Under the pieces are notes generated by a model. The model worked only from the letters and a program-made list of their open reading frames with translations. It was not told the DNA's origin and did not search any database. Shown piece by piece: positions 1 through 26,828 of a DNA stretch of 37,485 nucleotides (the stretch's first letter is position 1; the number at the start of each line of letters is the position of its first letter). Source of the stretch: an uncultured Candidatus Saccharibacteria bacterium (GTDB lineage Bacteria; Patescibacteriota; Minisyncoccia; Phycocordibacterales; UBA6065); NCBI GenBank assembly GCA_964596505.1, contig CAZQUF010000001.1:1-37485 (forward strand), in the 5' to 3' direction. The position numbers and the translations under genes are program-made.

Positions 1-1
1 T

Positions 2-64
2 CAGAGTATAACGATTTCGGCCGAGGAGAAAGCGGCGCTTGAGAAGTTGCTTAAGCGATTATAA
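2..64 (+). CDS. 3' end of an ORF running off the left edge (partial, unknown product)
   Basis: In-frame codons end at TAA 62-64 (tail ...ISAEEKAALEKLLKRL*). The start is off-window and no family is recognisable. Confidence 0.3.
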   Translation, partial: QSITISAEEKAALEKLLKRL

Positions 65-136
65 GGCCATGAATCGGCATACTTCCTCGTGTCAAATCGC
101 CTTGGATTTTACTCTAAAGGAAGCCATAATAAAGCT

Positions 137-1735
137 ATGAAGAACGCCCAAAAGACATCCCTCAAATACTTCCTCTACGCCCGCAAATCGACCGAATCAG
201 AAGATCGACAGGTTGCTTCGATTGACTCTCAGATTGATGAGATGAAGAAGATTGCCTTGCGACAGGGCATACAGATTATAGAGATACTCTCTGAATCAGG
301 GTCGGCAAAGACCCTCGGCCGAATAGTTTTCAACAAAATGCTCGATCGCATCATCAAGGGTGAGGCGAATGGTTTATTGTGTTGGAAGCTCGATCGTCTC
401 GCTCGTAACTTTGACGATGGTGGCAAAATCATAGGCTTGCTTCAACGTGGTGTCATTCAGGAGATCCGCACGTATGAGAAGACTTATTTGCCGAGCGACA
501 ACGTGTTGATGATTGCTCTTGAGCTCGGCATGGCTAATCAGTACTCGCGCGACCTTTCTGTGAACGTATCGCGTGGCCTGAAAGCCAAAGCTCAAATGGG
601 CTGGTATCCCGTTCAGCCTCCTATCGGCTATCTCAATAGCAAAACAAAAGGTAAGGGTTGTAATGATATTTTTAAGGATACGGAGCGATTCGATTTGGTC
701 CGAAAGATTATGGACTTGATGCTGACGGGTACTAAGCCGCCAAGCAAGATATTGCGGATTGCCACCGATGAATGGGGTCTACGGACCCGCAGGGGCGCTG
801 GTATTTCTCGAAGTGGCATCTATCATCTTTTAACGAATCCCTTTTACTACGGCATGTTCGAGTTCCCGAAGAAAAGCGGCAACTGGTATCAGGGCTTGCA
901 TGAGCCGATGATTACCATCGAGGAATACGACAAGATACAGATTCTCCTCGGCCGAAAGGGTAGCCCGCGCCCCAAAGCGAACATATTCGATTTTACGGGC
1001 ATGATGAGGTGCGGGGAGTGTGGTTGCATGATTACGGCTGAAGCAAAGGTTAAAAGGCAACTGAACGGCAACGTGCATCACTATGTCTACTATCACTGCA
1101 CAAAGCGAAAGAATCCAAATTGTGCTCAAGGGTCCATCGAGACGACGGTCCTTAAAAAGCAGATCGTTCAGGCAATAGAATCCGTTAACATTCCGCCTGA
1201 GTTCCACTCCTATGCTATGAAGTGGTTCAGAAAGAGGAATGAGGAGGATACGACCGTCAATACGACCATTCTAACCTCACAGCAGAAGGCTTATAACGTC
1301 TGCGTTAAGAAAATCGCTGGCCTCATTGATATGCGAGCAGGCGGAGAAATCAGTGAACAGGAGTTTGGCGAGAAGAAGACGCTCCTTTTGAAGGATAAGA
1401 GCCGTCTCGAAGAACTACTTGCCGATTCGGGCGATCGAGTGAGCAAGCAGGTTCAGAATGCCGACGACCTGTTTACCTTTGCCCGCGATGCGGTGACTAA
1501 GTTCAATAAGGGCCCAATCGACACCCGAAAACGGATACTCTCTACGCTCGGTTCGAACCTCGTCCTAAAAGACAGAATACTGCGTATTGATTGGGAAAAA
1601 TCGCTATTACCGACAGAAAAGCTGGCTCATGAGGTACGGAAACTTCATGAAGGGTTAGAACCTCCGAAAACCTTGATGGCACAAGGAGATTTCGACCGAA
1701 TGTACTCCGAGAGTCCTATCGTGTCCGCCCTGTAG
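137..1735 (+). CDS. Large serine recombinase (resolvase/invertase-type catalytic domain plus recombinase and zinc-ribbon domains)
   Basis: The ORF is open from GTG 89. ATG 137 follows AAGGAAG and gives MKNAQKTSLKYFLYARKSTESEDRQ, the Y-x-R-x-S-T catalytic-serine motif. A Cys-rich zinc-ribbon-like stretch (RCGECGC...HCTKRKNPNC) and a long helical tail fit large serine recombinases. The region is visibly more AT-rich than the core genes. Confidence 0.85.
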   Translation: MKNAQKTSLKYFLYARKSTESEDRQVASIDSQIDEMKKIALRQGIQIIEILSESGSAKTLGRIVFNKMLDRIIKGEANGLLCWKLDRLARNFDDGGKIIGLLQRGVIQEIRTYEKTYLPSDNVLMIALELGMANQYSRDLSVNVSRGLKAKAQMGWYPVQPPIGYLNSKTKGKGCNDIFKDTERFDLVRKIMDLMLTGTKPPSKILRIATDEWGLRTRRGAGISRSGIYHLLTNPFYYGMFEFPKKSGNWYQGLHEPMITIEEYDKIQILLGRKGSPRPKANIFDFTGMMRCGECGCMITAEAKVKRQLNGNVHHYVYYHCTKRKNPNCAQGSIETTVLKKQIVQAIESVNIPPEFHSYAMKWFRKRNEEDTTVNTTILTSQQKAYNVCVKKIAGLIDMRAGGEISEQEFGEKKTLLLKDKSRLEELLADSGDRVSKQVQNADDLFTFARDAVTKFNKGPIDTRKRILSTLGSNLVLKDRILRIDWEKSLLPTEKLAHEVRKLHEGLEPPKTLMAQGDFDRMYSESPIVSAL

Positions 1736-1796
1736 GGATCGAACCTACGACCTTATCCTTAAGAGGGATCTGCTCTACCAACTGAGCTAAGGGCGG
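1724..1796 (-). tRNA. tRNA-Lys (anticodon CTT)
   Basis: Manual cloverleaf, 73 nt: acceptor CCGCCCT/AGGGCGG, D-arm GCTC-AGTTGGTA-GAGC, anticodon loop CTCTTAA, T-arm GTAGG-TTCGATC-CCTAC, discriminator A. No encoded CCA (trailer CAC). Confidence 0.85.
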
Positions 1797-1862
1797 ATAT
1801 ACCGACTATTCCGACGTGTGGAAAATCTACCAGAAAAAGCCGTGATTGGCAATTCTAGCGTG

Positions 1863-1947
1863 TGCCTGGGGTGGGACTCGAACCCACAATGACCTTGCGG
1901 TAGGGAAATTTTAAGTCTCCTGTGGCTACCAATTACACCACCCAGGC
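1863..1947 (-). tRNA. tRNA-Leu (anticodon TAA), type II with long variable arm
   Basis: Manual fold, 85 nt: acceptor GCCTGGG/CCCAGGC, anticodon stem GGAGA/TTTCC with loop CTTAAAA, 16-nt variable arm, T-arm GTGGG-TTCGAGT-CCCAC. Trailer CAC, no CCA. Confidence 0.85.
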
Positions 1948-1953
1948 AGGGTG

Positions 1954-2027
1954 AGGCCTAGACCGGATTCGAACCGGTGCATAACGGTTTTGCAGACCGT
2001 CGCGTTGACCATCTTCGCCACTAGGCC
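1954..2027 (-). tRNA. tRNA-Cys (anticodon GCA)
   Basis: Manual fold, 74 nt: acceptor GGCCTAG/CTAGGCC, anticodon arm ACGGT-CTGCAAA-ACCGT, T-arm ACCGG-TTCGAAT-CCGGT, discriminator U73 and A13/A22 mismatch as expected for tRNA-Cys. Trailer CAC. Confidence 0.85.
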
Positions 2028-2698
2028 TTCATTTCAAAATGCTCAGTGAATATAGCATATTTTCTTTCGAGGTACTCGTTTTTCGGCGCTTTGTCGTACA
2101 TGAGCTTAAAGAGGCATTCGCTACCGAATGTCGAGTACCGGAGCTGATATGCTGTCCAACTCCTGATGACGTTTGCGGGTTTTACGCCCGTTTCTTCAGA
2201 TATTCTCTCGGAAAGCACTTTTAGAAATATTCCGCTGCCCGATGTGAATATGACATTGAGCTTTTTCGGGCGAATCTTCCCTGACTTTCTTACTATCTTT
2301 TCAAGGTGCACGCAACCGTCTCCGTCGAAGTATCCGCGGATGAAATGTCTGAGCACTCTTCGGGGAACAGAAGGGAACGTGATCGTGAGAGATTTATTTT
2401 GATAGAGACCTTTTCTTTCCAAGGATTTATAAAGTTTGGCATTGCCGATGCGGAGCCTGTAGACCAGTTTGCCGTTCTTGTGCGGCGATTCTCTTTGTAT
2501 AATAGTGTGCCCTGATCCAAGCCATAATTTGAACTTTGAGATCGTCTCGCGATCAGTGCTGGTCACTCCGACATATCGTCCACGCATTTTTGGCGTATAG
2601 ATTAGGTCGCCATCGGCATACAGATAGCCCAAAAGATATGCCATCCTCGGGCTCCATCGGTCGAAGAATTTTTCGTTCACTGCATAGCGTATTCCCAT
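2021..2698 (-). CDS. Free-standing double-motif LAGLIDADG homing endonuclease
   Basis: The 225-aa ORF carries two LAGLIDADG-type motifs, LLGYLYADGD (N-terminal half) and IRGYFDGDGC (second half). It is AT-rich relative to its neighbours. The stop codon (2021-2023) lies inside the 5' acceptor strand of tRNA-Cys. Confidence 0.85.
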   Translation of the reverse strand: MGIRYAVNEKFFDRWSPRMAYLLGYLYADGDLIYTPKMRGRYVGVTSTDRETISKFKLWLGSGHTIIQRESPHKNGKLVYRLRIGNAKLYKSLERKGLYQNKSLTITFPSVPRRVLRHFIRGYFDGDGCVHLEKIVRKSGKIRPKKLNVIFTSGSGIFLKVLSERISEETGVKPANVIRSWTAYQLRYSTFGSECLFKLMYDKAPKNEYLERKYAIFTEHFEMKA

Positions 2699-2704
2699 CT
2701 ATAA

Positions 2705-2732
2705 AGTATGGGACAAATCGCGTAGACTTCAA
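2705..2732 (-). promoter_or_regulatory. Putative promoter of the LAGLIDADG gene (-35 TTGAAG, 16-nt spacer, -10 CATACT, 6 nt to ATG)
   Basis: Hexamers read on the minus strand. The -10 ends 6 nt before ATG 2698 and no Shine-Dalgarno is present. Confidence 0.35.
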
Positions 2733-2751
2733 TATTTACAAAATCACCTGA

Positions 2752-3081
2752 TTATTTCGCCAAGCTCTCATCTATCCTCTGCCTCGCTTTCTCGCCCTTA
2801 TCCACGGCGAAGTCGAAGAACGGCAATCGCATGAGCCGGGCGTTGTATTTGACGTAGGCGCGGAATTCGGAGAGGTTGCGCTGGAGGAAATCGAGGGCGG
2901 CCGGCTCCTTGCTCTCGGGCATGACGGTGAAGAAGACGGTCGCCTTGTTAGACTTCTCGGCGCAGGCGACGCGCGTCACCGTGATCATGGAGACGCGGTT
3001 GGAATTGAGGGAGACGAACTCGGCGGCGAGGTGCTTGAGGAGCTCCTCGAGGCGTTCGTTTTTAAGCGTTGATGTGGACAT
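2752..3081 (-). CDS. rbfA: Ribosome-binding factor A
   Basis: The 109-aa ORF has RbfA-like sequence (...ITVTRV...ATVFFTV...FLQRN...FRAYV...RLPFFDF..D) and lies immediately downstream of infB, which is conserved synteny. Confidence 0.8.
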   Translation of the reverse strand: MSTSTLKNERLEELLKHLAAEFVSLNSNRVSMITVTRVACAEKSNKATVFFTVMPESKEPAALDFLQRNLSEFRAYVKYNARLMRLPFFDFAVDKGEKARQRIDESLAK

Positions 3082-5966: not shown

Positions 5967-7199
5967 ATGAATCTCTCTTTTTTAAAGAAAAATCGCATAT
6001 ACGCCGACTGGGCCGCGACGACGCCGCTCCATCCGCGCGTGAGGCGAGCTATGGCGCGCGCTGGGAAGGCCTGGGCGAATCCGAGCGCTATATACAGTGA
6101 AGGTGTTGAGGCAAAGAAAGCTCTCGAACAGGCACGGACATCCTCGGCCCGTATCCTTGGCGTAAAGCCCGAAGAAATATATTTTACCTCCGGCGGTACC
6201 GAATCGAATGCGACGATCATACAGGGAGTTCTCCGCACTCGATTGGAAAAAGGCATCGCCCCGCAGAATATCCACGTCGTGACCACGGCCATAGAGCATT
6301 CGTCTATTCTCGAGACATTGGCGACTTTTGCCCGACACGGAGTGAAGGTCACGTATGTAAAGCCGGCCCCCGACGGCGTCGTGCGCGCCGACGATGTTCT
6401 TGCCGCCATCACTCCCGCGACCGCGCTCGTCACGGTCATGTATGCAAACAACGAGATCGGCACCATACAGCCTGTCTCCAAGATCGGCGCGGGGATCCGC
6501 AAGATCCGCGCGGAGAAAATGGCGAAAGGCGCCGATTTTCCCGTCTTTCATACTGATGCCTCCCAGGCGCCGCTCTGGCTCTCCTGCGATCTCGAGGGAT
6601 TGCGGGCCGACGCCATGACGCTCGACGCGCACAAGATGCAGGGACCGAAAGGCGTCGGCGCTCTCGTCGTCCGCAGGCACGTTTCATGGGAGCCTCTCAT
6701 GGCAGGCGGCGGACAGGAAAGGGGCAAACGACCGACCACTGAGTCGGTCGCTCTCGCTACAGGTTTCGCGGAAGCGCTCGCGATAGCCCAGGAGGGGAGA
6801 GCGCAGCGCGCCAAAAAGAATCGCGATCGCGCGACGAAAGTCCGAGACGTATTCTTCGGCCTTTTGGCACGAGAATTGCCAGAGGCGGTCATAAACGGCT
6901 CTCTCGAAAAGCGCTTGCCGAATAACGTAAATATATCCATACCGAATCTCGTCGATCCCGAGCTGGCCGTCCTTTTCCTCGATAAGGAAGGCATCGCCTG
7001 CTCGACGAAGAGCTCGTGCCTCAAAGGCGAAGAAGAATCATATGTCGTAGCGGCGCTCTTTCCGGAAGACGCGCCGAAAAGCGAGAAATGGCGTGCCCGA
7101 AATACCCTCCGGTTTAGCCTTGCACCAAAGGCTTCTAAGCGGGACGTATCTCTTATCGTGGAGGCTCTGAAAAAGCTCCCGAAAAACGCCGAAAATTGA
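5967..7199 (+). CDS. Cysteine desulfurase (class-V aminotransferase, NifS/IscS-like)
   Basis: The 410-aa ORF has YADWAATTP, SGGTESNA, HSSILE and the PLP-lysine context DAHKMQGPKGVGALVV. A Cys-containing loop (ACSTKSSC) lies near the C-terminus. Confidence 0.9.
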   Translation: MNLSFLKKNRIYADWAATTPLHPRVRRAMARAGKAWANPSAIYSEGVEAKKALEQARTSSARILGVKPEEIYFTSGGTESNATIIQGVLRTRLEKGIAPQNIHVVTTAIEHSSILETLATFARHGVKVTYVKPAPDGVVRADDVLAAITPATALVTVMYANNEIGTIQPVSKIGAGIRKIRAEKMAKGADFPVFHTDASQAPLWLSCDLEGLRADAMTLDAHKMQGPKGVGALVVRRHVSWEPLMAGGGQERGKRPTTESVALATGFAEALAIAQEGRAQRAKKNRDRATKVRDVFFGLLARELPEAVINGSLEKRLPNNVNISIPNLVDPELAVLFLDKEGIACSTKSSCLKGEEESYVVAALFPEDAPKSEKWRARNTLRFSLAPKASKRDVSLIVEALKKLPKNAEN

Positions 7200-16512: not shown

Positions 16513-16519
16513 AACTTGG

Positions 16520-16614
16520 TGCGGGCGATGAGGGAATCGAACCCCCGACAAGGCGTTTGGAGTGCCTCGTTATGCCACTTAACTAATCGCCCGTATTTCG
16601 AATCGCCTTGATTT
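16520..16614. repeat. Direct repeat copy A (95 bp, identical to 17699-17793): whole tRNA-Trp plus 22 bp of its 5' flank
   Basis: Base-by-base comparison shows perfect identity at offset 1179. Imperfect similarity continues for about 40 more bp (to about 16650 / 17828), covering TATAAA and TTCCAA promoter-like hexamers. Confidence 0.9.
16522..16592 (-). tRNA. tRNA-Trp (anticodon CCA), copy 1
   Basis: Manual fold, 71 nt: acceptor GGGCGAT/ATCGCCC, D-arm GTTA-AGTGGCA-TAAC, anticodon loop CTCCAAA, T-arm GGGGG-TTCGATT-CCCTC, discriminator G. Trailer CAC. Confidence 0.85.
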
Positions 16615-16698: not shown

Positions 16699-17589
16699 TT
16701 AGCGCCAGTTATCGACGTTGACCTTGCCGATACTCGTTGCCCGCATGAATGGCGTATTGACGACGCGGTGGACGTCGATGCCTCCCACGCCTGAGGCGCG
16801 GAGCTCGGCATTCTGGGCTACCCCGTTGAAGGCGATACCGCCGACGCTCGTGGCACTGGCGGTGATCTTCGAGACGTCGCCATCGTCGATGCGGACCTTG
16901 CCGACGCCGTTCGTAGTCACGGTGAGTAGGCCATCGACCTTTTTGACATAGATGCTGCCGACGCTCTCGGCGGTGAGGCTTGCGTCGCGGACTTTGCCGA
17001 TGGTGACGTCGTTCACGCCTGAGGAGGCGACGGTCACTTGTCCCTCGGTATCGCCGATCGAGACGTCCCCGTTCACGTCGGTCACGGTCACGGGCGTTCT
17101 GCGGGGAACGATGACGATGATCTTCGCGGCGGCTTTTTTGCCGATGGAGATCCTGCCGATCGAGATGCCGACCTTGAGGATGGATAGCGCGAATCCGGAC
17201 GGCCGACTCTTCGGGCTGATGAGGACCACCTTGTCGTCGCTTTCGATGCTGAGGTTCTCAACGGCCTTCGGATCGCCTTCGACGGCGACCGTGAATCGGG
17301 GACCGACGGCTACTTCGACTTCGGCGTCGACGCCGGCGATTTTCAGTTCGCTGGCATCGAAGACGCGCGGTTCGAATTTCTGGACCGGGGTCGTTTTCGA
17401 TTCCAGCGCGCCCTTTGCCGTGAGCTTGATGGTCTTGCCGCTCATCGAGACGTCTCCTGTGCAGGTGATTTGACCGGTCGATATGTCGCAGACGCTCCCG
17501 TCGGAGAAGGTGACGCGCGAGTTTTGGATGCCCGTTATCGTCATGCCGGTGAACTCGATTGTCTTGCCGTTCAGGGTCAGTGTTTGCAT
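16699..17589 (-). CDS. Beta-helix repeat protein resembling DUF2807/DUF4097 (putative adhesin-head GIN-type repeats)
   Basis: The 296-aa ORF has a strong SD (AAGGAG, 6 nt, ATG). It contains repeated x-V-x-G-D/G-V-x-I/V units (VNGDVSIGDTEGQVTVASSGVNDVTIG, SVGSIYVKKVDGLLTVTTNGVGKVRID, SVGGIAFNG...ASGVGGIDV). No signal peptide is evident. Confidence 0.6.
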   Translation of the reverse strand: MQTLTLNGKTIEFTGMTITGIQNSRVTFSDGSVCDISTGQITCTGDVSMSGKTIKLTAKGALESKTTPVQKFEPRVFDASELKIAGVDAEVEVAVGPRFTVAVEGDPKAVENLSIESDDKVVLISPKSRPSGFALSILKVGISIGRISIGKKAAAKIIVIVPRRTPVTVTDVNGDVSIGDTEGQVTVASSGVNDVTIGKVRDASLTAESVGSIYVKKVDGLLTVTTNGVGKVRIDDGDVSKITASATSVGGIAFNGVAQNAELRASGVGGIDVHRVVNTPFMRATSIGKVNVDNWR

Positions 17590-17698
17590 TGAGTACTCCT
17601 TTCGTATGGGTTTTAGTTTGTGAGGATCAAATTGCTAATAGCGTACTATCATTTTTAAAAGGATAAGTCAAGTCAGCGGTTTCGCGCTCTTTGCTTGC

Positions 17699-17793
17699 TG
17701 CGGGCGATGAGGGAATCGAACCCCCGACAAGGCGTTTGGAGTGCCTCGTTATGCCACTTAACTAATCGCCCGTATTTCGAATCGCCTTGATTT
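17699..17793. repeat. Direct repeat copy B (95 bp, identical to 16520-16614)
   Basis: See copy A. Confidence 0.9.
17701..17771 (-). tRNA. tRNA-Trp (anticodon CCA), copy 2 (identical to copy 1)
   Basis: The 71-nt sequence is the same as 16522-16592. The trailer is CAG, and no terminator lies between it and the downstream beta-helix gene. Confidence 0.85.
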
Positions 17794-19764: not shown

Positions 19765-20937
19765 ATGAAAGTGCACAAGATCTACATCGGCGGCTGGTTC
19801 CAGCGCACGACGCTCCATCTCACGGAGATGTGGGATTTCATGAAGAGCGGCACGTCGAGGCTCGATCTGCCGACCGACAAGCTCGCAGAGATGCTCGCAG
19901 GCCTTTCTATCGCGAGCGTGACGCGCGAGAGCGGCCCTCTCGAGTATCTCTGCGTCACGACGAGCGTCGGCATCGAGTATCGGATATACGAAGACGGTCT
20001 TATCATCCTCGAAAAAGCCTTCAGCTCTCTCTCGGCAGATTTCGCCGCCATCAAGGAATATTATGACGAAAAGCTCTCCAAGAGCCTGTCTTTCATCTTT
20101 AGCAAAGGCGCTCCCGTGCCGAAAGAGCTCGCCAATATCAAGACTATCCTTCCATACATCGTCACCGTGAGCGGCGCCAAGGAAGGGGAGATCTCCGCCA
20201 TGTTCAAGGACGCATCCGAAGAGATGTACTCTGTCCTCAAGACCAAGACTGTCGGCGTCTATCGGAGCTCGGGACTCATCGTCATCGACGACCTCATGGA
20301 CGAGGCTCTCGCTCGAGATGTCATCGAATCTCAGATATTCTTCCGCGAGTTCAAGACGCAGCTCCACCGGTATCTCGCTATCCATCGAACTCTTTGGGAG
20401 AAGATTCGCGAGATCAAAGAGCGGGGACAGATAAAGGGCACCGATATCGACGGCCTGCGCAACCAGCTTTCGATATATCAAAAGACCGTGAATCTTATTG
20501 GGGCGAGGATCGACCAGATGCCCGCATACGTCGAAACCCGCCGAAAGATGACCCATACCGACAAGCTCGATCCGAGCCTCGAGCCGCTCTTTCAATTCAA
20601 GTTCGAGACTCTCCTCGACACGCACGAGTACATAAAACACCTCTGGAGCATGACCGAGAACTATCTCGGGTCGGCTATCGAGCTTTTCAACGAGCTCCAG
20701 GCCAAGAGCACCAAGAACACCATCTCCTCTCTCCAACTCGTCACCACCATCGGCGTCGTGGCCGGCATCCTCGGCTATCTCGCCAAGGATACGCTGCCTC
20801 AATTCACCTGGATCGGAGCGCTCTACTTCGTCTTGCTCATGGCTATGACCTGGATCGTCAATAGCGCCATATCGAAGTTCTACAAGAACAAGAGGTACAA
20901 GATAAAGGCGGAGGAGATCGAGAAGGATATCAAATAG
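19765..20937 (+). CDS. CorA-like two-TM membrane protein with non-canonical GYL in place of GMN (family assignment tentative)
   Basis: ATG 19765 follows an extended -10 (TGcTATCAT). A cytosolic domain of about 330 aa with long helices is followed by TM1 (LQLVTTIGVVAGILGYL), a short loop (AKDTLPQF), TM2 (WIGALYFVLLMAMTWIVNSAI) and a basic tail (KFYKNKRYK). This is the CorA/ZntB topology. Confidence 0.6.
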   Translation: MKVHKIYIGGWFQRTTLHLTEMWDFMKSGTSRLDLPTDKLAEMLAGLSIASVTRESGPLEYLCVTTSVGIEYRIYEDGLIILEKAFSSLSADFAAIKEYYDEKLSKSLSFIFSKGAPVPKELANIKTILPYIVTVSGAKEGEISAMFKDASEEMYSVLKTKTVGVYRSSGLIVIDDLMDEALARDVIESQIFFREFKTQLHRYLAIHRTLWEKIREIKERGQIKGTDIDGLRNQLSIYQKTVNLIGARIDQMPAYVETRRKMTHTDKLDPSLEPLFQFKFETLLDTHEYIKHLWSMTENYLGSAIELFNELQAKSTKNTISSLQLVTTIGVVAGILGYLAKDTLPQFTWIGALYFVLLMAMTWIVNSAISKFYKNKRYKIKAEEIEKDIK

Positions 20938-20971
20938 GTCGGGATTTCGCCCGCCCGAGTGCCCATATGGC

Positions 20972-20999
20972 TTGAAAGGGCATATACTATATGCATAAT
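20972..20999 (+). promoter_or_regulatory. Promoter of the giant ORF (-35 TTGAAA, 16 nt, -10 CATAAT, 10 nt to ATG 21010)
   Basis: Hexamers read directly in the 72-nt gap after the CorA-like gene. Confidence 0.5.
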
Positions 21000-21009
21000 T
21001 ATAGCGCGT

Positions 21010-23865
21010 ATGCCTGAATCGCTTTTACCTCAGGAGTCACAAGAATCGGCGCCGAATATCGAGGGCGAAGAGCCCACTGCCGAAGGGCTTTTTCTGTCGC
21101 GATTCGATCGTATAGACATTACTGACCCGCTCCTCGAAGAGATTCGGGTCGAAGGGGGGAAGGTTCAAACGCTCGTAGCGGAACTGAAGAGCGCCGTCGA
21201 GAGCATTCTCGATGCTGGGAGAGAGGATACTGTGGGCGAGCTCGTCGCGACCGAGATAGAGAAAGGCCCCGAATACGTGCGCGGCAGGCTCAGCGAGCTT
21301 GATGTGCGCACGAATGATCTCGCAGAGAGACTCAAGAAGCTCAAAAGCGATGTGCGGGCGAAGACAGAGATATTCTCATGGACTCAAAACAAAACTACAG
21401 ACCTCGCAAGCCTCCGCGAAGGTTTAAGGTTCGCAGTCCCGCTGATTCAGTCAACCGTCGCCGCCTCGACAGAGTTCCGCAGTGTATGCAATGCTCGCGA
21501 CGATCTCTACGATGCGTATGCGTTGGCAAGGATACAGCACTACGGCGGGACTTCGATAGATGACTCGTACGGCCTCTATGAGCAAAAGTCGACCGAGCGC
21601 AGGAGGCTCAGCGGCCCGCTCGGTATCAAACGCCTGTTCTATCGGAAGGAACTTACTCAGCTCGATGAAGAGATGGCTGAGCTCTCAGGGTTTATGTCTG
21701 GTCGGAGAAAGTCTTCATCGAACTTTAGCTACTTTGATCGCGAGGATGCCAAGAATGCATTCGTAGATTACGCGCAATCTATCGAACACAAGGTGCAAAA
21801 GAAGATAACGGAATGCGTCGAGGCGAACGCCAAAGAGAGATTGCGTTCTGAGAAAGCGACTATCCTCGACGCGGCAGAAGTCGACGCTCTCGATAATGTT
21901 CTCCTCGAGAAGTTCGCCGTCCCTGAGCTCAAAGGATGCAGCGAAGAAGTCATTGAAGATACAGTAGGTTTGCTGAAGCGAAGCTTCGAGATAAAACTAG
22001 ATGCGGAGCACACTGGCTCGGGACCGTATAGCCGGCTCGATAGCGAGATAGCGAATCTGCAAGGGCAGAGCTACAGGATAGCTCGAGAGTTTAGGGGTTC
22101 CGGTCAGAGGTTCCAAAAAGTCGCCGCTTTCGTCGATACCGGCCATCTGAGGCTAAAATCGGGAGAAGAGATACAGAGAATCGGTCTTGCCGCAGAGGCG
22201 TCCTTTGCAGATATCTTCAAAATGTTAGGCAAGGTCGGCGCGGGCCTGTCTGGGTACTCTCGACCTCGGCTCTTCGGAGGCGATTTCGATACCCTTCGGT
22301 TCAAGGCGATCGCCGCGTGTCCGGAGACCAAGGCCAGATTTGGCGAAAAGATCGAATCTGCAAGGCGGACGCTGGAAGCAGGCTTGGAGCGCTCCTTGAC
22401 GAGTTCGGCCAAGAACCATGAAGAAGGCGTGCTTTTGGCTTCGAAGCTCATGGATATCGGAGGGCCCGAAAGCGTCGCGGTCATGCTTGTCAACGCTTTC
22501 CGGGAGCCCGGATATTCTGGCGAGCGTCTGCTGCTCCAGCCCGATAAACCAGAAAGCGGGCCGCTCGTAGCCTATCTCTCTCGACTTACCGATAAGGATC
22601 TGGAAGTTTTGAAGGGGCAATCGATTCCCGGTCTTATAGAATGTATTTCTCTTATCCGCTCTCATCCTGCCGATTTCGTGCACCCCCGCCCTGGGTCGGT
22701 ATACGCCGAAGTGCAGGCGGAGCTCGCAAAAGTCGTGGGGCATTTCTTTGAAACGAGGGGTAAGGAGCTCTTCGAATTCCTTGTCGATTCGGCTGATAAC
22801 GTAGATTCCGACCTTGGAGGATCGTACGCAAAGATAGATGATGTCCTCAGAAAGTCCGACAATCTGAGCTTTTTCTCCGATGTTATTACCACTTTCAGGC
22901 GTCGATTCGTGTTGTTTAATGACGTAAAGTCTCTCAAGCTCCTTTCAGAGATCCCTGATTGTCTTGATAACATAGATGAGTTCCCGCAAAGGCTTCGCGG
23001 CGGCATACAGAAACAGCTTGCCTCGGAGATGTACGAGTCATATCGTTCGTACGAATCGCGTCGCTACGGCTTGGCCATATTGCAGAAGGGCCCTGCAGAG
23101 GAAGACGGCGCTGGATCCCGAGACGCATCGCACGCTCAGGTCCAGGCTATGTTCAAGAAGATATCCGAAAACACCATTCTGAGCCCCGACGTGATTTCCA
23201 AATTTAACGGACTGAGGCTAAAGGCCGCGCTCGGCGAACCGATGCAGGTAGATCGCGACCGATTAGCCGAGCTTTTCAATGATCCTCACATCGATACAGT
23301 CAAAACCGATGTTAGGTCATTTATATTCGACCTTGTGTCTTCAGGCAAGGTCGAATTGACAGCCGCGCAAGCAGCCGCATCTGTCGATCGATTGATCGAG
23401 GAGGCGCACTCCTCTCTGCTCCTCTACGACACCAAAAAGAGCAGAGATTTTGCCCGGACTCTCTCGGAGAAGAGTCTCATCTCCGAGTCTCAGTATAGGA
23501 CTTTCCAAAAAGCGATAGACACTGCCGATTCCGGATATGTACAGGCTTTGGGAACCCACAAAGGAGATCTAGAGATAACGGGCGCGAATTGGGTCGAGAA
23601 CCTCTCGTGGTATATACGGATTAACGCCGGTTTTGCTGCCAATGGCGCAGGCTCGAATGTCCTGAGACGTACGTTCTCTAACGATCATCCTGCGAACAGG
23701 GATGCCTGTCTCCGCGGACTTTACGGCTCATGGCGGGCGCTCTTGGAATCAGGACGATTGGATATGGACGGCAGCACTATTTCCCGTGTCGTGCGTATGA
23801 ATAGGGGGGGCGGGTGGTCTCAAATATGTCGAACGGCTTGCGCAGATGATGTCGTCTGTCGATAA
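21010..23865 (+). CDS. Large hypothetical protein, part 1 (951 aa from ATG 21010), predominantly helical with no recognisable motif
   Basis: The ORF has diverse composition, whereas the antisense ORFs are Gly/Asp/Arg/Leu-rich shadows. There is no Walker A, HExxH, signal peptide or TM helix. The last 17 codons after the G7 tract (WSQICRTACADDVVCR) look non-native. Confidence 0.65.
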   Translation: MPESLLPQESQESAPNIEGEEPTAEGLFLSRFDRIDITDPLLEEIRVEGGKVQTLVAELKSAVESILDAGREDTVGELVATEIEKGPEYVRGRLSELDVRTNDLAERLKKLKSDVRAKTEIFSWTQNKTTDLASLREGLRFAVPLIQSTVAASTEFRSVCNARDDLYDAYALARIQHYGGTSIDDSYGLYEQKSTERRRLSGPLGIKRLFYRKELTQLDEEMAELSGFMSGRRKSSSNFSYFDREDAKNAFVDYAQSIEHKVQKKITECVEANAKERLRSEKATILDAAEVDALDNVLLEKFAVPELKGCSEEVIEDTVGLLKRSFEIKLDAEHTGSGPYSRLDSEIANLQGQSYRIAREFRGSGQRFQKVAAFVDTGHLRLKSGEEIQRIGLAAEASFADIFKMLGKVGAGLSGYSRPRLFGGDFDTLRFKAIAACPETKARFGEKIESARRTLEAGLERSLTSSAKNHEEGVLLASKLMDIGGPESVAVMLVNAFREPGYSGERLLLQPDKPESGPLVAYLSRLTDKDLEVLKGQSIPGLIECISLIRSHPADFVHPRPGSVYAEVQAELAKVVGHFFETRGKELFEFLVDSADNVDSDLGGSYAKIDDVLRKSDNLSFFSDVITTFRRRFVLFNDVKSLKLLSEIPDCLDNIDEFPQRLRGGIQKQLASEMYESYRSYESRRYGLAILQKGPAEEDGAGSRDASHAQVQAMFKKISENTILSPDVISKFNGLRLKAALGEPMQVDRDRLAELFNDPHIDTVKTDVRSFIFDLVSSGKVELTAAQAAASVDRLIEEAHSSLLLYDTKKSRDFARTLSEKSLISESQYRTFQKAIDTADSGYVQALGTHKGDLEITGANWVENLSWYIRINAGFAANGAGSNVLRRTFSNDHPANRDACLRGLYGSWRALLESGRLDMDGSTISRVVRMNRGGGWSQICRTACADDVVCR
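23804..23810 (+). repeat. G7 homopolymer at the junction of the two large ORFs
   Basis: The sequence is aat-a-GGGGGGG-c-ggg. The downstream ORF's frame is open from 23801, immediately 5' of the tract. Confidence 0.95.
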
Positions 23866-25906
23866 TGTGCTTAATGGAGGGCATAAAGTAGCCGAGAAGA
23901 CCAAAGAAAGCATCCAGAGCGGACTGCTCGCGTGCGAGAAGAGGTTCGATAAGGAACGCAGGTCCGATGAAGACCGCTCGGTCTACTATCTCATATCGAA
24001 AGATATCCTCGCCGCCTCTCCGAGCCTGTACGGCGACTTTCTTGGATTGCTTGAGGGACTCGAGCAGAAAGACCTCGAGACCTTCAATGAAGGATGCTTT
24101 CCTCTCTACCAGGCGCTGCTCACGGTCTATCAGAAAGGCAGGCGCGATCTCGGTGAGCCTATCTATAGCGGCAGGGATCTCTTGAAGATCAGAAAGAATA
24201 TAGAGGGCCTCAAAGCAAGAATTGCGGAAGGCGTGCCGCCTAAAGATATTTTTGAGGCTGGGCGTCAGGACCTCATCGAGCGCATTAAACAAGGTTTTGC
24301 AAAGCGTTTCGGTATAAAGAAGGTTCCTGAGCATTTCGACAAAGAGAGGATCAGGACGGTTCAGGACTTCATCCGCTATATCTCGAATCTTGCGCATAAG
24401 GACGACACAAAAGAGGCCTTGCTGGCTTTCTACTTCTCGCTTTGCCTGAACGACGAGTGGCACGCCTTTAGAGCCGGAAAGGCGGTAAACGTCGGCGATT
24501 ATCTCGAGGACGACAAGAAAGAGATCGTCGAAGCCGTCCTTAAGCAGTATTCCCCAGACAAGATCATTATGCCGTCCCTGCTCGGCATAGAGGAGAACCA
24601 GATAGGCGCATTCAGAGAGGCGCTTGAGACCGAAACGGTGGCAACCACTCTCGGGAGCATACAGACCATAGACATGAAGCTTGGGAACGCGAAGCGGGGC
24701 ATAGAGACGCTCGGGGATCTCGACGCCTATCCTGAAGAAAAGGATAAGGCCACCCTCGCCTTGTGCCTCAAGCATCACAAAGCGGTAGGCCAAGCGCTCG
24801 CCGAGCTCTTCGGCTCTCTAAAGAGTAAGAAGCCGATCTCGGAGTCGTCTAGACTCATAGCGGCAAGGCTTGCCGATATATACGGCGTAGATTCATGGAC
24901 GGCGGGCGAGATCAAGAGGGTCCAAGACGATGTGAAGGTCGTAAGCCTCATCGTCGATATGCTCAAGAAAGTCGAAGACGAGGACATCGATCGAAAGATA
25001 GAAGAGTTGCACGCGGCGCTCGAGCCCTCTGAGAGCGTCATTCGCATCTTCCAAAAGATCGGCGAAGAGTTCGAAAGGAGCTCTGGCGCTCTCGCTCTCT
25101 CTCACGACCTTGCGTATCTCGAGAATATATTCGTCAAGAACGACGACAAGCTCGATGACATCGAGAAGAAAGCGGCGAAGGATTATATCGATGGTATACG
25201 GAACCTCATGACGGGCCTCGAAGGCATATCTATGCGAGTTAAGGAATACTTCGAAAAGGTCGCGAAAAGCATCCATGGCGCCAAGAAAGAGATCCTTGAG
25301 AGTCGCATGGAAGAAATACGAAAAGTCCTTCATGCGACGGGCGAAGCCATGAATATCACGAGCACGATGACGTCGAACATGAACCTCCTTATCGAACATA
25401 TGAGGCAGTGTCTCGGCTGTCGTACTACAGAGATCAATAACGATACCAACCTGACGTTCGGCGAACCTTACAAGTTCTATCTTCTGAGCCAGACGGATGA
25501 CTTCAGCGATAGCATCGCTGACGAGATCGTCTCTTTGCTGCCCGTAACGTTCGAAGACGGAAAGAAGGGTATGGCCTTCGTGCTCGATCAATTGTATGGT
25601 ACGAAGTCGTCCGATGTGCTTGCGAGCCATATAAAGACGATAGAGAAGAAGCGCGAGGGGCTCAAGGCGCGATTCCCTGACGCGCATATCCCGATCGTCG
25701 TCTCTCAGGCCGCGCTCAGGAGCGTTGGTCTTGATGGCTCCTTGCTTATGGATCGTCTCAATGCGACCGGGAAAAAAGATATATTCCTCGCTTCGGACTT
25801 GAGTATTACGATACCCGTCTCTGCGTTGGGCGAGCACTATACCGAATTTGGCGGTGGGGCGCGTAGCGCTGGCCCGCGAAGCGTCGCGGCTCTCGTTATC
25901 GCCTAG
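23846..25906 (+). CDS. Large hypothetical protein, part 2 (686 aa), probably continuous with 21010..23865
   Basis: ATG 23846 overlaps the upstream stop by 20 nt with no SD. Its frame is already open from 23801 (IGGAGGLKYVERLAQMM...). It is helical and charged, with no recognisable motif. It ends convergently, overlapping miaA by 11 nt. Confidence 0.65.
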   Translation: MMSSVDNVLNGGHKVAEKTKESIQSGLLACEKRFDKERRSDEDRSVYYLISKDILAASPSLYGDFLGLLEGLEQKDLETFNEGCFPLYQALLTVYQKGRRDLGEPIYSGRDLLKIRKNIEGLKARIAEGVPPKDIFEAGRQDLIERIKQGFAKRFGIKKVPEHFDKERIRTVQDFIRYISNLAHKDDTKEALLAFYFSLCLNDEWHAFRAGKAVNVGDYLEDDKKEIVEAVLKQYSPDKIIMPSLLGIEENQIGAFREALETETVATTLGSIQTIDMKLGNAKRGIETLGDLDAYPEEKDKATLALCLKHHKAVGQALAELFGSLKSKKPISESSRLIAARLADIYGVDSWTAGEIKRVQDDVKVVSLIVDMLKKVEDEDIDRKIEELHAALEPSESVIRIFQKIGEEFERSSGALALSHDLAYLENIFVKNDDKLDDIEKKAAKDYIDGIRNLMTGLEGISMRVKEYFEKVAKSIHGAKKEILESRMEEIRKVLHATGEAMNITSTMTSNMNLLIEHMRQCLGCRTTEINNDTNLTFGEPYKFYLLSQTDDFSDSIADEIVSLLPVTFEDGKKGMAFVLDQLYGTKSSDVLASHIKTIEKKREGLKARFPDAHIPIVVSQAALRSVGLDGSLLMDRLNATGKKDIFLASDLSITIPVSALGEHYTEFGGGARSAGPRSVAALVIA

Positions 25907-26828
25907 CTTTGTTGAGGAATTTCCGAACTGCGCCCTCGACTTTTCGATTCGAAGTTGGCCCGAACCATTCGATCGATTTGTTTGCCCCGAACCACCTCAT
26001 TTGCCTCTTCGAGAAATCGACGATCCTGTTCTCGAGCTCGACGAGCATCTCGGTCTTCGAGAGCTTCTTTTGGAGATAGAGTGCGGCGTATCTATACTCG
26101 AGGCCGAATTCATGGAGGCGTTTCCATGAGACGCCTTTTTTGTGGAGTCGCGCGGTCTCGCGGATAATCGTATCACCCCGCATGCGCTTCATCAGGCGGG
26201 CATGGATGCGTTCCCGGAGCGTTTCGCGATCGGTCGTAAGGCCGATGAAGAGAGTTTCATAGAGCTTCTTCCGTTTCGCGCCGGGAGAGGGGTCTATTTT
26301 TGGTACGAAGCCAAGGGTGCGCGCTATCTCGATCGCCCGGATAATGCGTACTTTGTTACGGGGATCGATGTCGCGAGCGCGACGAGGGTCGAGTCGGCGA
26401 AGCTCCCTCATGAGGCTTTCGACCGGCTTTTTTGCGAGCCGCGCACGGAGCTTTTTGTCAGGCGGCACGGCAGGGAACGTCTCGTCATAGACGAGAGCGT
26501 CGATGTAGAAGCCTGTGCCGCCGCATATGATGGGGAGTTTACCTCGACGGATGATATCGGCGATCGCTTTCGTTCCGTCTCGCTTGAAATCTTCGACGGT
26601 ATAGCGCGGGCTCTTTCGGTTGCGCGGGTCTACGACGTCGAGGAGGTGGTGGGGGATACTTTTCATCTCGCGCTTCGTGATCTTGCCTGCGCCAACGTCG
26701 AGGCCGCGATAGACCTGGCGCGAATCGGCGGATACGACCTCGCCGCCGAACGCGCGAGCGAGCTCGACTGCGAGGCCGCTCTTGCCTGTGGCGGTTGGGC
26801 CGAGGATGACGATGATTTTCTTTTTCAT
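25896..26828 (-). CDS. miaA: tRNA dimethylallyltransferase
   Basis: IIVILGPTATGKSGLAVELA (P-loop), VSADSRQVYRGLDVGAGK and IICGGTGFY are canonical MiaA blocks. Confidence 0.9.
   Translation of the reverse strand: MKKKIIVILGPTATGKSGLAVELARAFGGEVVSADSRQVYRGLDVGAGKITKREMKSIPHHLLDVVDPRNRKSPRYTVEDFKRDGTKAIADIIRRGKLPIICGGTGFYIDALVYDETFPAVPPDKKLRARLAKKPVESLMRELRRLDPRRARDIDPRNKVRIIRAIEIARTLGFVPKIDPSPGAKRKKLYETLFIGLTTDRETLRERIHARLMKRMRGDTIIRETARLHKKGVSWKRLHEFGLEYRYAALYLQKKLSKTEMLVELENRIVDFSKRQMRWFGANKSIEWFGPTSNRKVEGAVRKFLNKARR

Follow-up and report, generated by a model that had tools for sequence, protein, structure and literature searches.

A reading-frame break at a seven-G tract in a giant gene of an uncultured Candidatus Saccharibacteria bacterium, best read as an ordinary homopolymer-associated frameshift

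A 37,485-nucleotide (nt) stretch of an uncultured Candidatus Saccharibacteria bacterium (GenBank assembly GCA_964596505.1, contig CAZQUF010000001.1, positions 1 to 37,485; hereafter the window) carries two overlapping open reading frames (ORFs) of 951 and 686 amino acids (aa), and comparison with homologues strongly supports the view that both belong to one giant gene, of which they form the N- and C-terminal parts and whose frame is broken at a run of seven G residues (the G7 tract). With a probability of roughly 0.6, this break is an ordinary and genuine homopolymer-associated frameshift, fixed in the sampled population, the outcome of which is a pseudogene of recent origin or an "off" allele. 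The break seems genuine but unremarkable; it appears neither programmed nor conserved and gives no sign of being a switchable feature, and it is a new instance of a well-known type of event in an uncharacterised gene family.

One gene in two reading frames

The tract, GGGGGGG, is preceded by AAT A and followed by CGGGTGG. The upstream frame, which could start as early as GTG 20959 (giving 968 aa), reads AAT AGG GGG GGC at this site and RVVRMNRGGGWSQICRTACADDVVCR immediately before its stop codon; the upstream ORF is composed of the N-terminal ~933-935 residues of a family protein and an out-of-frame tail, (G)GGWSQICRTACADDVVCR. The downstream frame has a TGA at 23798-23800, is open from 23801 and reads IGGAGGLKYVERLAQMM, and it has also been called as a gene from ATG 23849 (685 aa, protein P0005) or from GTG 23867 (679 aa, P0003). 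The latter protein, which starts with VLNGG, was considered as the product of a contig break just past the tract and was rejected, as it is explained by the alternative start. The two ORFs overlap by 20 nt. An earlier note on this DNA, made from the letters alone, had described the AAT AGG GGG GGC reading, the upstream stop with its Cys tail and the downstream frame open from 23801, all of which are correct, and had stated that one fewer G would fuse the two ORFs. This is indeed the case: deletion of one G yields a product of 1,631 aa that passes through RMNRGAGGLKYVERLAQMMSSVDNVLNG, with VVRMNRGAGGLK as the junction-spanning peptide expected of the frame-corrected protein, and the fused frame contains no internal stop and no second frameshift. 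A tract of G6 or G9 would thus encode the full-length protein, and tracts of G5, G7, G8 or G10 a truncated one. The norm in the family is one uninterrupted ORF of 1,400-2,800 aa, from which the window departs with its two overlapping ORFs.

That the two ORFs constitute one gene, as the earlier note had proposed, is borne out by continuous homologues, by single alignments across the junction and by collinear N-terminal halves. In a genome-locus scan covering one genome per GTDB species, 17 homologous loci were found, and a single uninterrupted ORF of 1,425-2,413 aa is present in all 15 of these that include enough upstream DNA, with 340 to 1,697 residues preceding the point equivalent to the junction (at least 687 where no contig edge cuts the gene); the one continuous ORF that the note had suggested looking for in orthologues is therefore present, and orthologues split into two overlapping ORFs were not encountered. 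An exhaustive HMMER search of 1.84 billion representatives, using the downstream frame together with the 15 residues before its first ATG, delineated a family of 256 clusters at 50% identity (205 with E<=1e-30; best E 1e-174). The best 150 representatives are 1,622 aa long in the median and match with their C-terminal ~700 residues, and the match begins at query residues 1-3, i.e. ahead of the first ATG. The closest relatives (P0006-P0009; 1,611-1,647 aa) share 43-44% identity over residues 2-700, and in them the junction corresponds to residues 914-954, compared with ~935 in the fused window protein; outside the gene's own cluster this search revealed no relative above 44% identity. Across fused residues 915-955, a single BLASTP high-scoring segment pair (HSP) was obtained for 120 of 122 full-length representatives. 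Over its residues 46-930, the upstream ORF runs collinear with residues 37-946 of P0006, P0007 and P0009 (E 9e-31, 5e-44 and 1e-42, respectively), and it matches homologous locus L008 with E=3e-21. The window gene thus has the collinear N-terminal region as well as the C-terminal ~700-aa region with the family motifs GAGxLKY[IV]E, C-L-x-C and NNDTNLTFGExYKFY. No relative was recovered in a scan of JGI metagenomes with a 501-aa junction-spanning query. A word-index protein search gave erratic results (P0001 and P0002 only, then P0003 only) and was replaced by the exhaustive HMMER search, its absences not being counted.

No family member is split at the point where the window gene is broken. Short family representatives were considered as possible natural splits and were ruled out, being either contig-edge fragments or disrupted at other positions. 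One such member (L022; ENA ERZ27254749 k141_101696) has an in-frame TAA at 1921-1923, inside the C-terminal domain, with homology continuing in the same frame to ~2166, and reflects disruption by a nonsense mutation or a fault of the assembly; another (L021; GCA_964403305.1, CAYOGA010000051.1) changes frame at ~590-720 and misses ~270-300 residues between family positions ~540 and ~810, which reflects either a deletion or a chimeric assembly. Since these members are disrupted elsewhere, breaks in a gene of such length are not rare.

Table 1. Features of the giant gene and of its frame break, in window coordinates
Feature	Position	Strand	Description
Promoter-like site TTGAAA-16 nt-CATAAT	20972-20999	+	10/12 matches, best in 20700-26200; ends 10 nt before ATG 21010
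Upstream ORF	21010-23865	+	951 aa from ATG 21010; TAA 23863-23865
G7 homopolymer	23804-23810	+	With A23803, site of the net +1-nt disruption; inside the (G)GAG motif codons
Conserved codons AGGLKYVERLAQ	23810-23845	+	In the downstream frame, ahead of any downstream start; from the alignment
Downstream ORF	23846-25906	+	686 aa from first ATG 23846; C-terminal ~700 aa of the family protein
C-terminal alpha/beta domain	25349-25900	+	GNAT-like (acyl-CoA N-acyltransferase) fold, predicted by AlphaFold2 and Foldseek; borderline

The break and its probable origin

The break falls in the best-conserved central motif of the family, (G)GAGxL(K/S/T)x[IV]E, also written (G)GAGxLKY[IV]E, which is present in every aligned homologue and, as GAGxL..[IV]E, in 89 representatives. 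Family homology switches from one frame to the other within 23800-23812, at the tract, and what is non-random is the position of the tract, not the tract itself. Because the AGGLKYVERLAQ motif lies upstream of every downstream start codon, it can be translated only when the frame is corrected at the tract. Possible repairs were scored against a family hidden Markov model (HMM) profile of +/-80 residues around the central motif, and deletion of A23803, which converts the site to AAT GGG GGG GCG and the protein to NGGAGGL with G7 kept, obtained 132.5 bits, followed by G6 with 129.6 bits and G9 with 126.2 bits; the sequence with G7 as it stands reached 30.1 bits, a match to the upstream half alone. 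Loss of one G, the repair put forward in the earlier note, does restore a natural family protein, but it is not the sole repair, since removal of A23803 restores the frame equally well and also yields the more typical GGAG motif. Repair to G9, by two additional Gs, is less likely, as it scores slightly lower and alters the otherwise constant distance from the hydrophobic residue at -5 to GAG. Judged from these scores, the lesion is a net gain of 1 nt within 23800-23812; replication slippage from G6 to G7 is its most likely origin, and insertion of an A at 23803, in front of an in-frame G7, is possible and fits frame and profile equally well.

The available data would be accounted for by the following course of events. 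In this lineage, the Gly codons of the conserved (G)GAG motif would happen to form a run of Gs, and the frame would have been broken by a net +1-nt insertion, either through G6 to G7 slippage or through gain of the A at 23803. Translation from ATG 21010 would then halt at the TAA and release a 951-aa N-terminal fragment devoid of the motif and the C-terminal domain, and the downstream part would be made only by inefficient re-initiation, at ATG 23846 or GTG 23867, or through slippage on the G run that is rare and not programmed. The promoter-like site ahead of ATG 21010 is likely to be the promoter of the whole giant gene, with a leader that is short or absent, and the downstream ORF has neither a Shine-Dalgarno sequence nor, in a scan of 20700-26200, a promoter-like site of its own, which suggests that the gene has become a pseudogene very recently or is an allele turned "off" by mutation. 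The most economical view is that function has been lost or that, at best, spontaneous slippage yields a trace of full-length product. The simplest reading, that of a frameshift mutation that has merely become fixed, had been missing from the explanations listed in the earlier note. With respect to transcription in general, most genes of the window were observed to have no Shine-Dalgarno sequence and to carry a TATAAT/TATAGT-like box 6-12 nt before their ATG (e.g. at 5967, 11002, 31675 (-), 33303 (-) and 33337), a pattern that suggests widespread leaderless or very-short-leader mRNAs in this organism.

The G7 state is reproduced in near-identical contigs from two further assemblies: a 4,061-bp contig (L001; ENA ERZ27245399 k141_2434291) differs from the window by 2 single-nucleotide polymorphisms (SNPs), and a 17,490-bp contig (L002/L003; ENA ERZ27245408, k141_915027) by 1 SNP, both without indels and both with G7. 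The k141 names of these contigs are in the style of MEGAHIT and short reads, and the 951-aa product (P0001) is on record from NCBI, JGI/IMG and ENA sources. Being 1-2 SNPs away from the window, the further assemblies represent different read sets or strains, and sequencing error is unlikely because three assemblies that differ by SNPs all have G7. At the level of assemblies, G7 is the consensus state of every sampled population, and the break looks real. All three SNPs that separate the window from these contigs (22140, 23839 and 24732) lie inside the giant gene, and no SNP occurs in the ~11 kb of flanks that L003 has in common with the window; the change at 22140 is synonymous and that at 24732 non-synonymous.

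Several points weigh against an ordinary fixed frameshift. Both halves are otherwise intact over 1,631 codons, a state that implies a lesion that is either very recent or else tolerated or bypassed. The T>G change at 23839 is synonymous in the fused frame and replaces Cys by Gly in the out-of-frame tail, a difference that, at this single site, is suggestive of constraint still acting on the fused frame. Alleles with G6 or G8 may exist as minorities below the assembly consensus, and the three assemblies may derive from related samples and from one sequencing platform. Moreover, reversible homopolymer frameshifts at 7-nt G/C tracts, such as that of glpK, have been shown to be adaptive in Mycobacterium tuberculosis (PMC10334774).

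Other explanations for the split

Phase variation by slipped-strand mispairing, one of the explanations in the earlier note, would make the tract a contingency locus, i.e. a reversible switch that is on at G6 or G9 and off at G7, with the sampled populations in the off phase, and such a locus is considered unlikely. The part of that proposal which held up is that a change in tract length toggles the frame; tracts of other lengths were not found, and positive evidence for phase variation did not emerge. In favour of a switch, along with the intact halves, the synonymous SNP at 23839 and the mycobacterial precedent, it can be noted that the only two G runs of at least 6 in the 37.5-kb window, 21154-21159 and G7, both lie in the giant gene, and that G/C runs are otherwise depleted. 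On the other hand, every SNP-differing assembly is at G7, and the products expected of G5, G6, G8, G9 and the A23803 deletion had no exact match among ~15 billion proteins. The tract is absent at this site from every homologue, the 14 homologues with the motif having G runs of 2-5 and mostly of 2-3, and the genes of the family show no excess of long G/C tracts. Within the window, a single G/C run of at least 7 was observed and 3.0 +/- 2.3 are expected from dinucleotide shuffles, which is below chance expectation and makes G7 by itself unsurprising, and G6 matches number 3 compared with an expected 12.2 +/- 4.0. It has also been reported that a 7G tract has a low neutral rate of change, 3e-8 per generation, in M. 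smegmatis (PMC10334774). Of the properties that define a contingency locus, a frame-switching repeat is thus present, whereas polymorphism in tract length was not seen in the three assemblies and selective maintenance of the tract finds no echo in the homologues, the depleted window or the unenriched family.

Known switches offer a partial parallel. Like the 7-nt tracts of M. tuberculosis (PMC10334774), G7 is a coding G/C 7-mer in a moderately GC-rich genome, where a truncating +1 change is in principle reversible by slippage; unlike those tracts, for which homoplasy and reversion are documented over thousands of isolates, only the G7 state is recorded here. The poly-G/C loci of Campylobacter, Neisseria, Haemophilus and Helicobacter (PMC8355987, PMC5084427) are similar in that an intragenic poly-G sets the frame of a large, possibly host-interaction, protein. 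However, these loci are usually at least 8 nt long, numerous per genome, conserved among strains and polymorphic, whereas the window has a single G7 in a sequence depleted of G/C runs, and this tract is absent from homologues and invariant in three assemblies. That G7 acts as a working on/off switch of a giant GNAT-domain protein, through replication slippage or through low-level slippage during expression, is regarded as doubtful. A literature search on mismatch repair in Patescibacteria gave nothing usable. Two giant-gene paralogues of another Saccharibacteria metagenome-assembled genome (MAG), CAMJKD01 (L011 and L017; 1,865 and 1,425 aa), carry in-frame 7-nt G/C runs at differing positions, a C7 at 8406 of L011 and a G7 at 9754 of L017.

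An artefact, in which the genome would in truth have G6 (or G9) and an unbroken 1,631-aa gene, is disfavoured and quite improbable. Homopolymers are classic sites of indel errors, the protein once repaired fits the family perfectly, the gene has no other lesion, and a systematic effect of the sequencing platform is conceivable. This is countered by the repetition of G7 in the two k141 assemblies and by the 951-aa product being recorded in NCBI, JGI/IMG and ENA; in addition, runs of 7 nt seldom give rise to errors in a short-read consensus.

Programmed recoding, listed in the earlier note as programmed frameshifting or transcriptional slippage, would generate the full-length protein by a +1 shift on AGG-GGG-G or by a polymerase that drops one G. 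It is very improbable, because the tract is unconserved, its flanks have no significant RNA structure and there is no hungry or stop codon. From G7, correction demands a +1 (or -2) ribosomal shift, and not a -1 shift, or an mRNA with one G fewer (or two more). Some features are compatible with this idea: tRNA-Gly could re-pair perfectly one base forward in the G run, AGG and GGG are rare in the housekeeping genes of the window (6.6 and 4.6 per thousand), and the conserved motif 3' of the tract lacks its own start codon. Against it, the site is unconserved both in the 14 homologues with the motif and in the 89 representatives, GGC, which is the next 0-frame codon to enter the A site, is used more than any other Gly codon, and there is no in-frame stop. 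Predicted RNA structure was not significant compared with shuffles 3' of the tract (z=-0.6) and no better than shuffles in the 70 nt 5' of it (z=0.17), and the genome makes little use of Shine-Dalgarno sequences. A programmed +1 frameshift of the prfB or antizyme type relies on a conserved site, a slow A-site codon or stop and a stimulator, and transcriptional slippage on a long A/T run or on a conserved slippery run preceded by a hairpin; neither combination was found at G7.

The prfB gene (release factor 2) is similar in its +1 shift and in an AGGGGG-like G-rich purine stretch. It is dissimilar in that it shifts at CUU-UGA, with a stop in frame and, at a set distance, a Shine-Dalgarno-like stimulator, an arrangement conserved across bacteria of which no feature is present or conserved at G7; the AGGGGG at the tract presumably resembles that stimulator, which would favour recoding. 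Known bacterial transcriptional slippage occurs at runs of ~9 or more A/T, which counts against recoding here. In Buchnera and Blochmannia, frameshifted genes are rescued by transcriptional slippage at long poly-A, with A/T runs of ~10 or more, and the present case is comparable in that a homopolymer frameshift affects an otherwise intact gene in a reduced-genome, symbiont-like bacterium. A G7 run would form a stable RNA-DNA hybrid, and such a run is not known to undergo efficient slippage.

Functional fission, in which the two halves would now be separate subunits with the second made by translational coupling at ATG 23846 or GTG 23867, is highly unlikely, despite the overlap of the ORFs, the intact halves and the location of GTG 23867 immediately behind the stop (1 nt after TAA 23863-23865, with ATG 23846 lying 20 nt before it), because starting at either codon drops the invariant GAGxLKY[IV]E and cuts into the first helix predicted for the downstream domain (residues 5-25 of the AlphaFold2 model), because no ribosome-binding signal is present and because the family is not split at this junction, its short representatives being fragments or disrupted elsewhere.

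The giant-protein family and its surroundings

Alignments and structural models portray the family as uncharacterised and specific to Patescibacteria, a group of tiny and for the most part uncultured bacteria, with a large helical body and a C-terminal GNAT-like domain. Its members, of 1,400-2,800 aa, come from MAGs of Saccharibacteria, Parcubacteria, Gracilibacteria and Peribacteria; two short family-bearing contigs (L005, CAZCKV010000035.1; L013, CAZRDN010000047.1) are found in MAGs labelled Gammaproteobacteria, which is probably a matter of mis-binning. This distribution in itself points to a Patescibacterium as the source of the window. Neither ORF has an above-threshold match in Pfam or NCBIfam; when 17 family members were compared with Pfam at E<=1, no consistent family and no Acetyltransf_* match came up, and in a profile search of PDB sequences the best E was 0.1.

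A confident AlphaFold2 model of the C-terminal 701 residues, built on a 31-sequence alignment, has a predicted local distance difference test score (pLDDT) of 82 and a predicted template modelling score (pTM) of 0.77, and consists of a long helical region followed by an alpha/beta domain (residues 517-700). This domain holds the family motifs with the highest conservation (C-L-x-C, NNDTNLTFGExYKFY) and, when modelled alone, reaches a pLDDT of 84 and a pTM of 0.81. In a Foldseek search of the PDB with the isolated domain, all of the 50 best matches had the GNAT fold (probability 0.89-1.00, E 1e-3 to 2e-2), with template modelling (TM) scores of 0.3-0.54, or 0.4-0.54 by target for single-domain GNATs; queries with the whole protein gave E>=0.13. 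The coenzyme A (CoA)-binding motif Q/R-x-x-G-x-G/A is not evident in the family, which retains D-x-x-Y-G-x-K at that place, a loose resemblance. The structures that the predicted fold of the last ~200 residues resembles, at a borderline level, are exclusively of the GNAT fold, which is that of acyltransferases such as aminoglycoside N-acetyltransferases, RimI, the TacT/GmvT toxins and the catalytic domain of malonyl-CoA decarboxylase. Unlike these, the window protein has no GNAT Pfam match, a TM of about 0.4-0.5, an unclear CoA motif and a helical body that exceeds 1,400 aa and is without known relatives; a GNAT-like fold is consistent with the model but borderline.

In a synteny test, the 17 homologous loci contained none of 14 neighbours that the giant gene has in the window and, in the absence of a conserved neighbourhood, there is no context that points to a function. 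The giant gene (21010-25906) is atypical in codon usage, with AGA and AGG at 32 and 26 per thousand versus 2.7 and 6.6 in housekeeping genes and GGC at 23 versus 47 per thousand, and its GC content is lower, at 0.53. The window is part of a bacterial chromosome, and its other genes encode IF-2, ClpB, alanine racemase, MgsA, MiaA, ParB, topoisomerase I, DprA and SerRS, together with eight tRNA genes. Positions 1-3000 have a GC content of 0.48-0.49 compared with 0.55-0.61 elsewhere; here, a large serine recombinase ORF (89-1735) abuts tRNA-Lys, with tRNA-Leu and tRNA-Cys next in order. On the minus strand, a LAGLIDADG_3 endonuclease ORF (2021-2698) extends over the edge of tRNA-Cys. This region may be a mobile element integrated at a tRNA cluster. 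Further on, a 100-nt direct repeat of 99% identity (16515-16614 and 17694-17793) contains two identical tRNA-Trp(CCA) genes, between which lies a DUF2807 (adhesin head-like) ORF (16699-17589), with a further 21-nt repeat after each copy.

With regard to annotation, the two "hypothetical proteins" of this locus (951 aa and 685/686 aa) are one disrupted gene, and counting them as two families misleads. Heterogeneity in tract length among reads, if true, would make this the first phase-variation candidate in Patescibacteria; otherwise, the case is that of an ordinary homopolymer frameshift. Were the tract to be a working switch, it would be the first contingency locus described in Patescibacteria, and phase variation would be linked with a giant protein peculiar to one lineage that may act in interaction with the host. 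The newly defined giant family, which has no relative in Pfam, NCBIfam or the PDB, is a lead for the biology of Patescibacteria as episymbionts.

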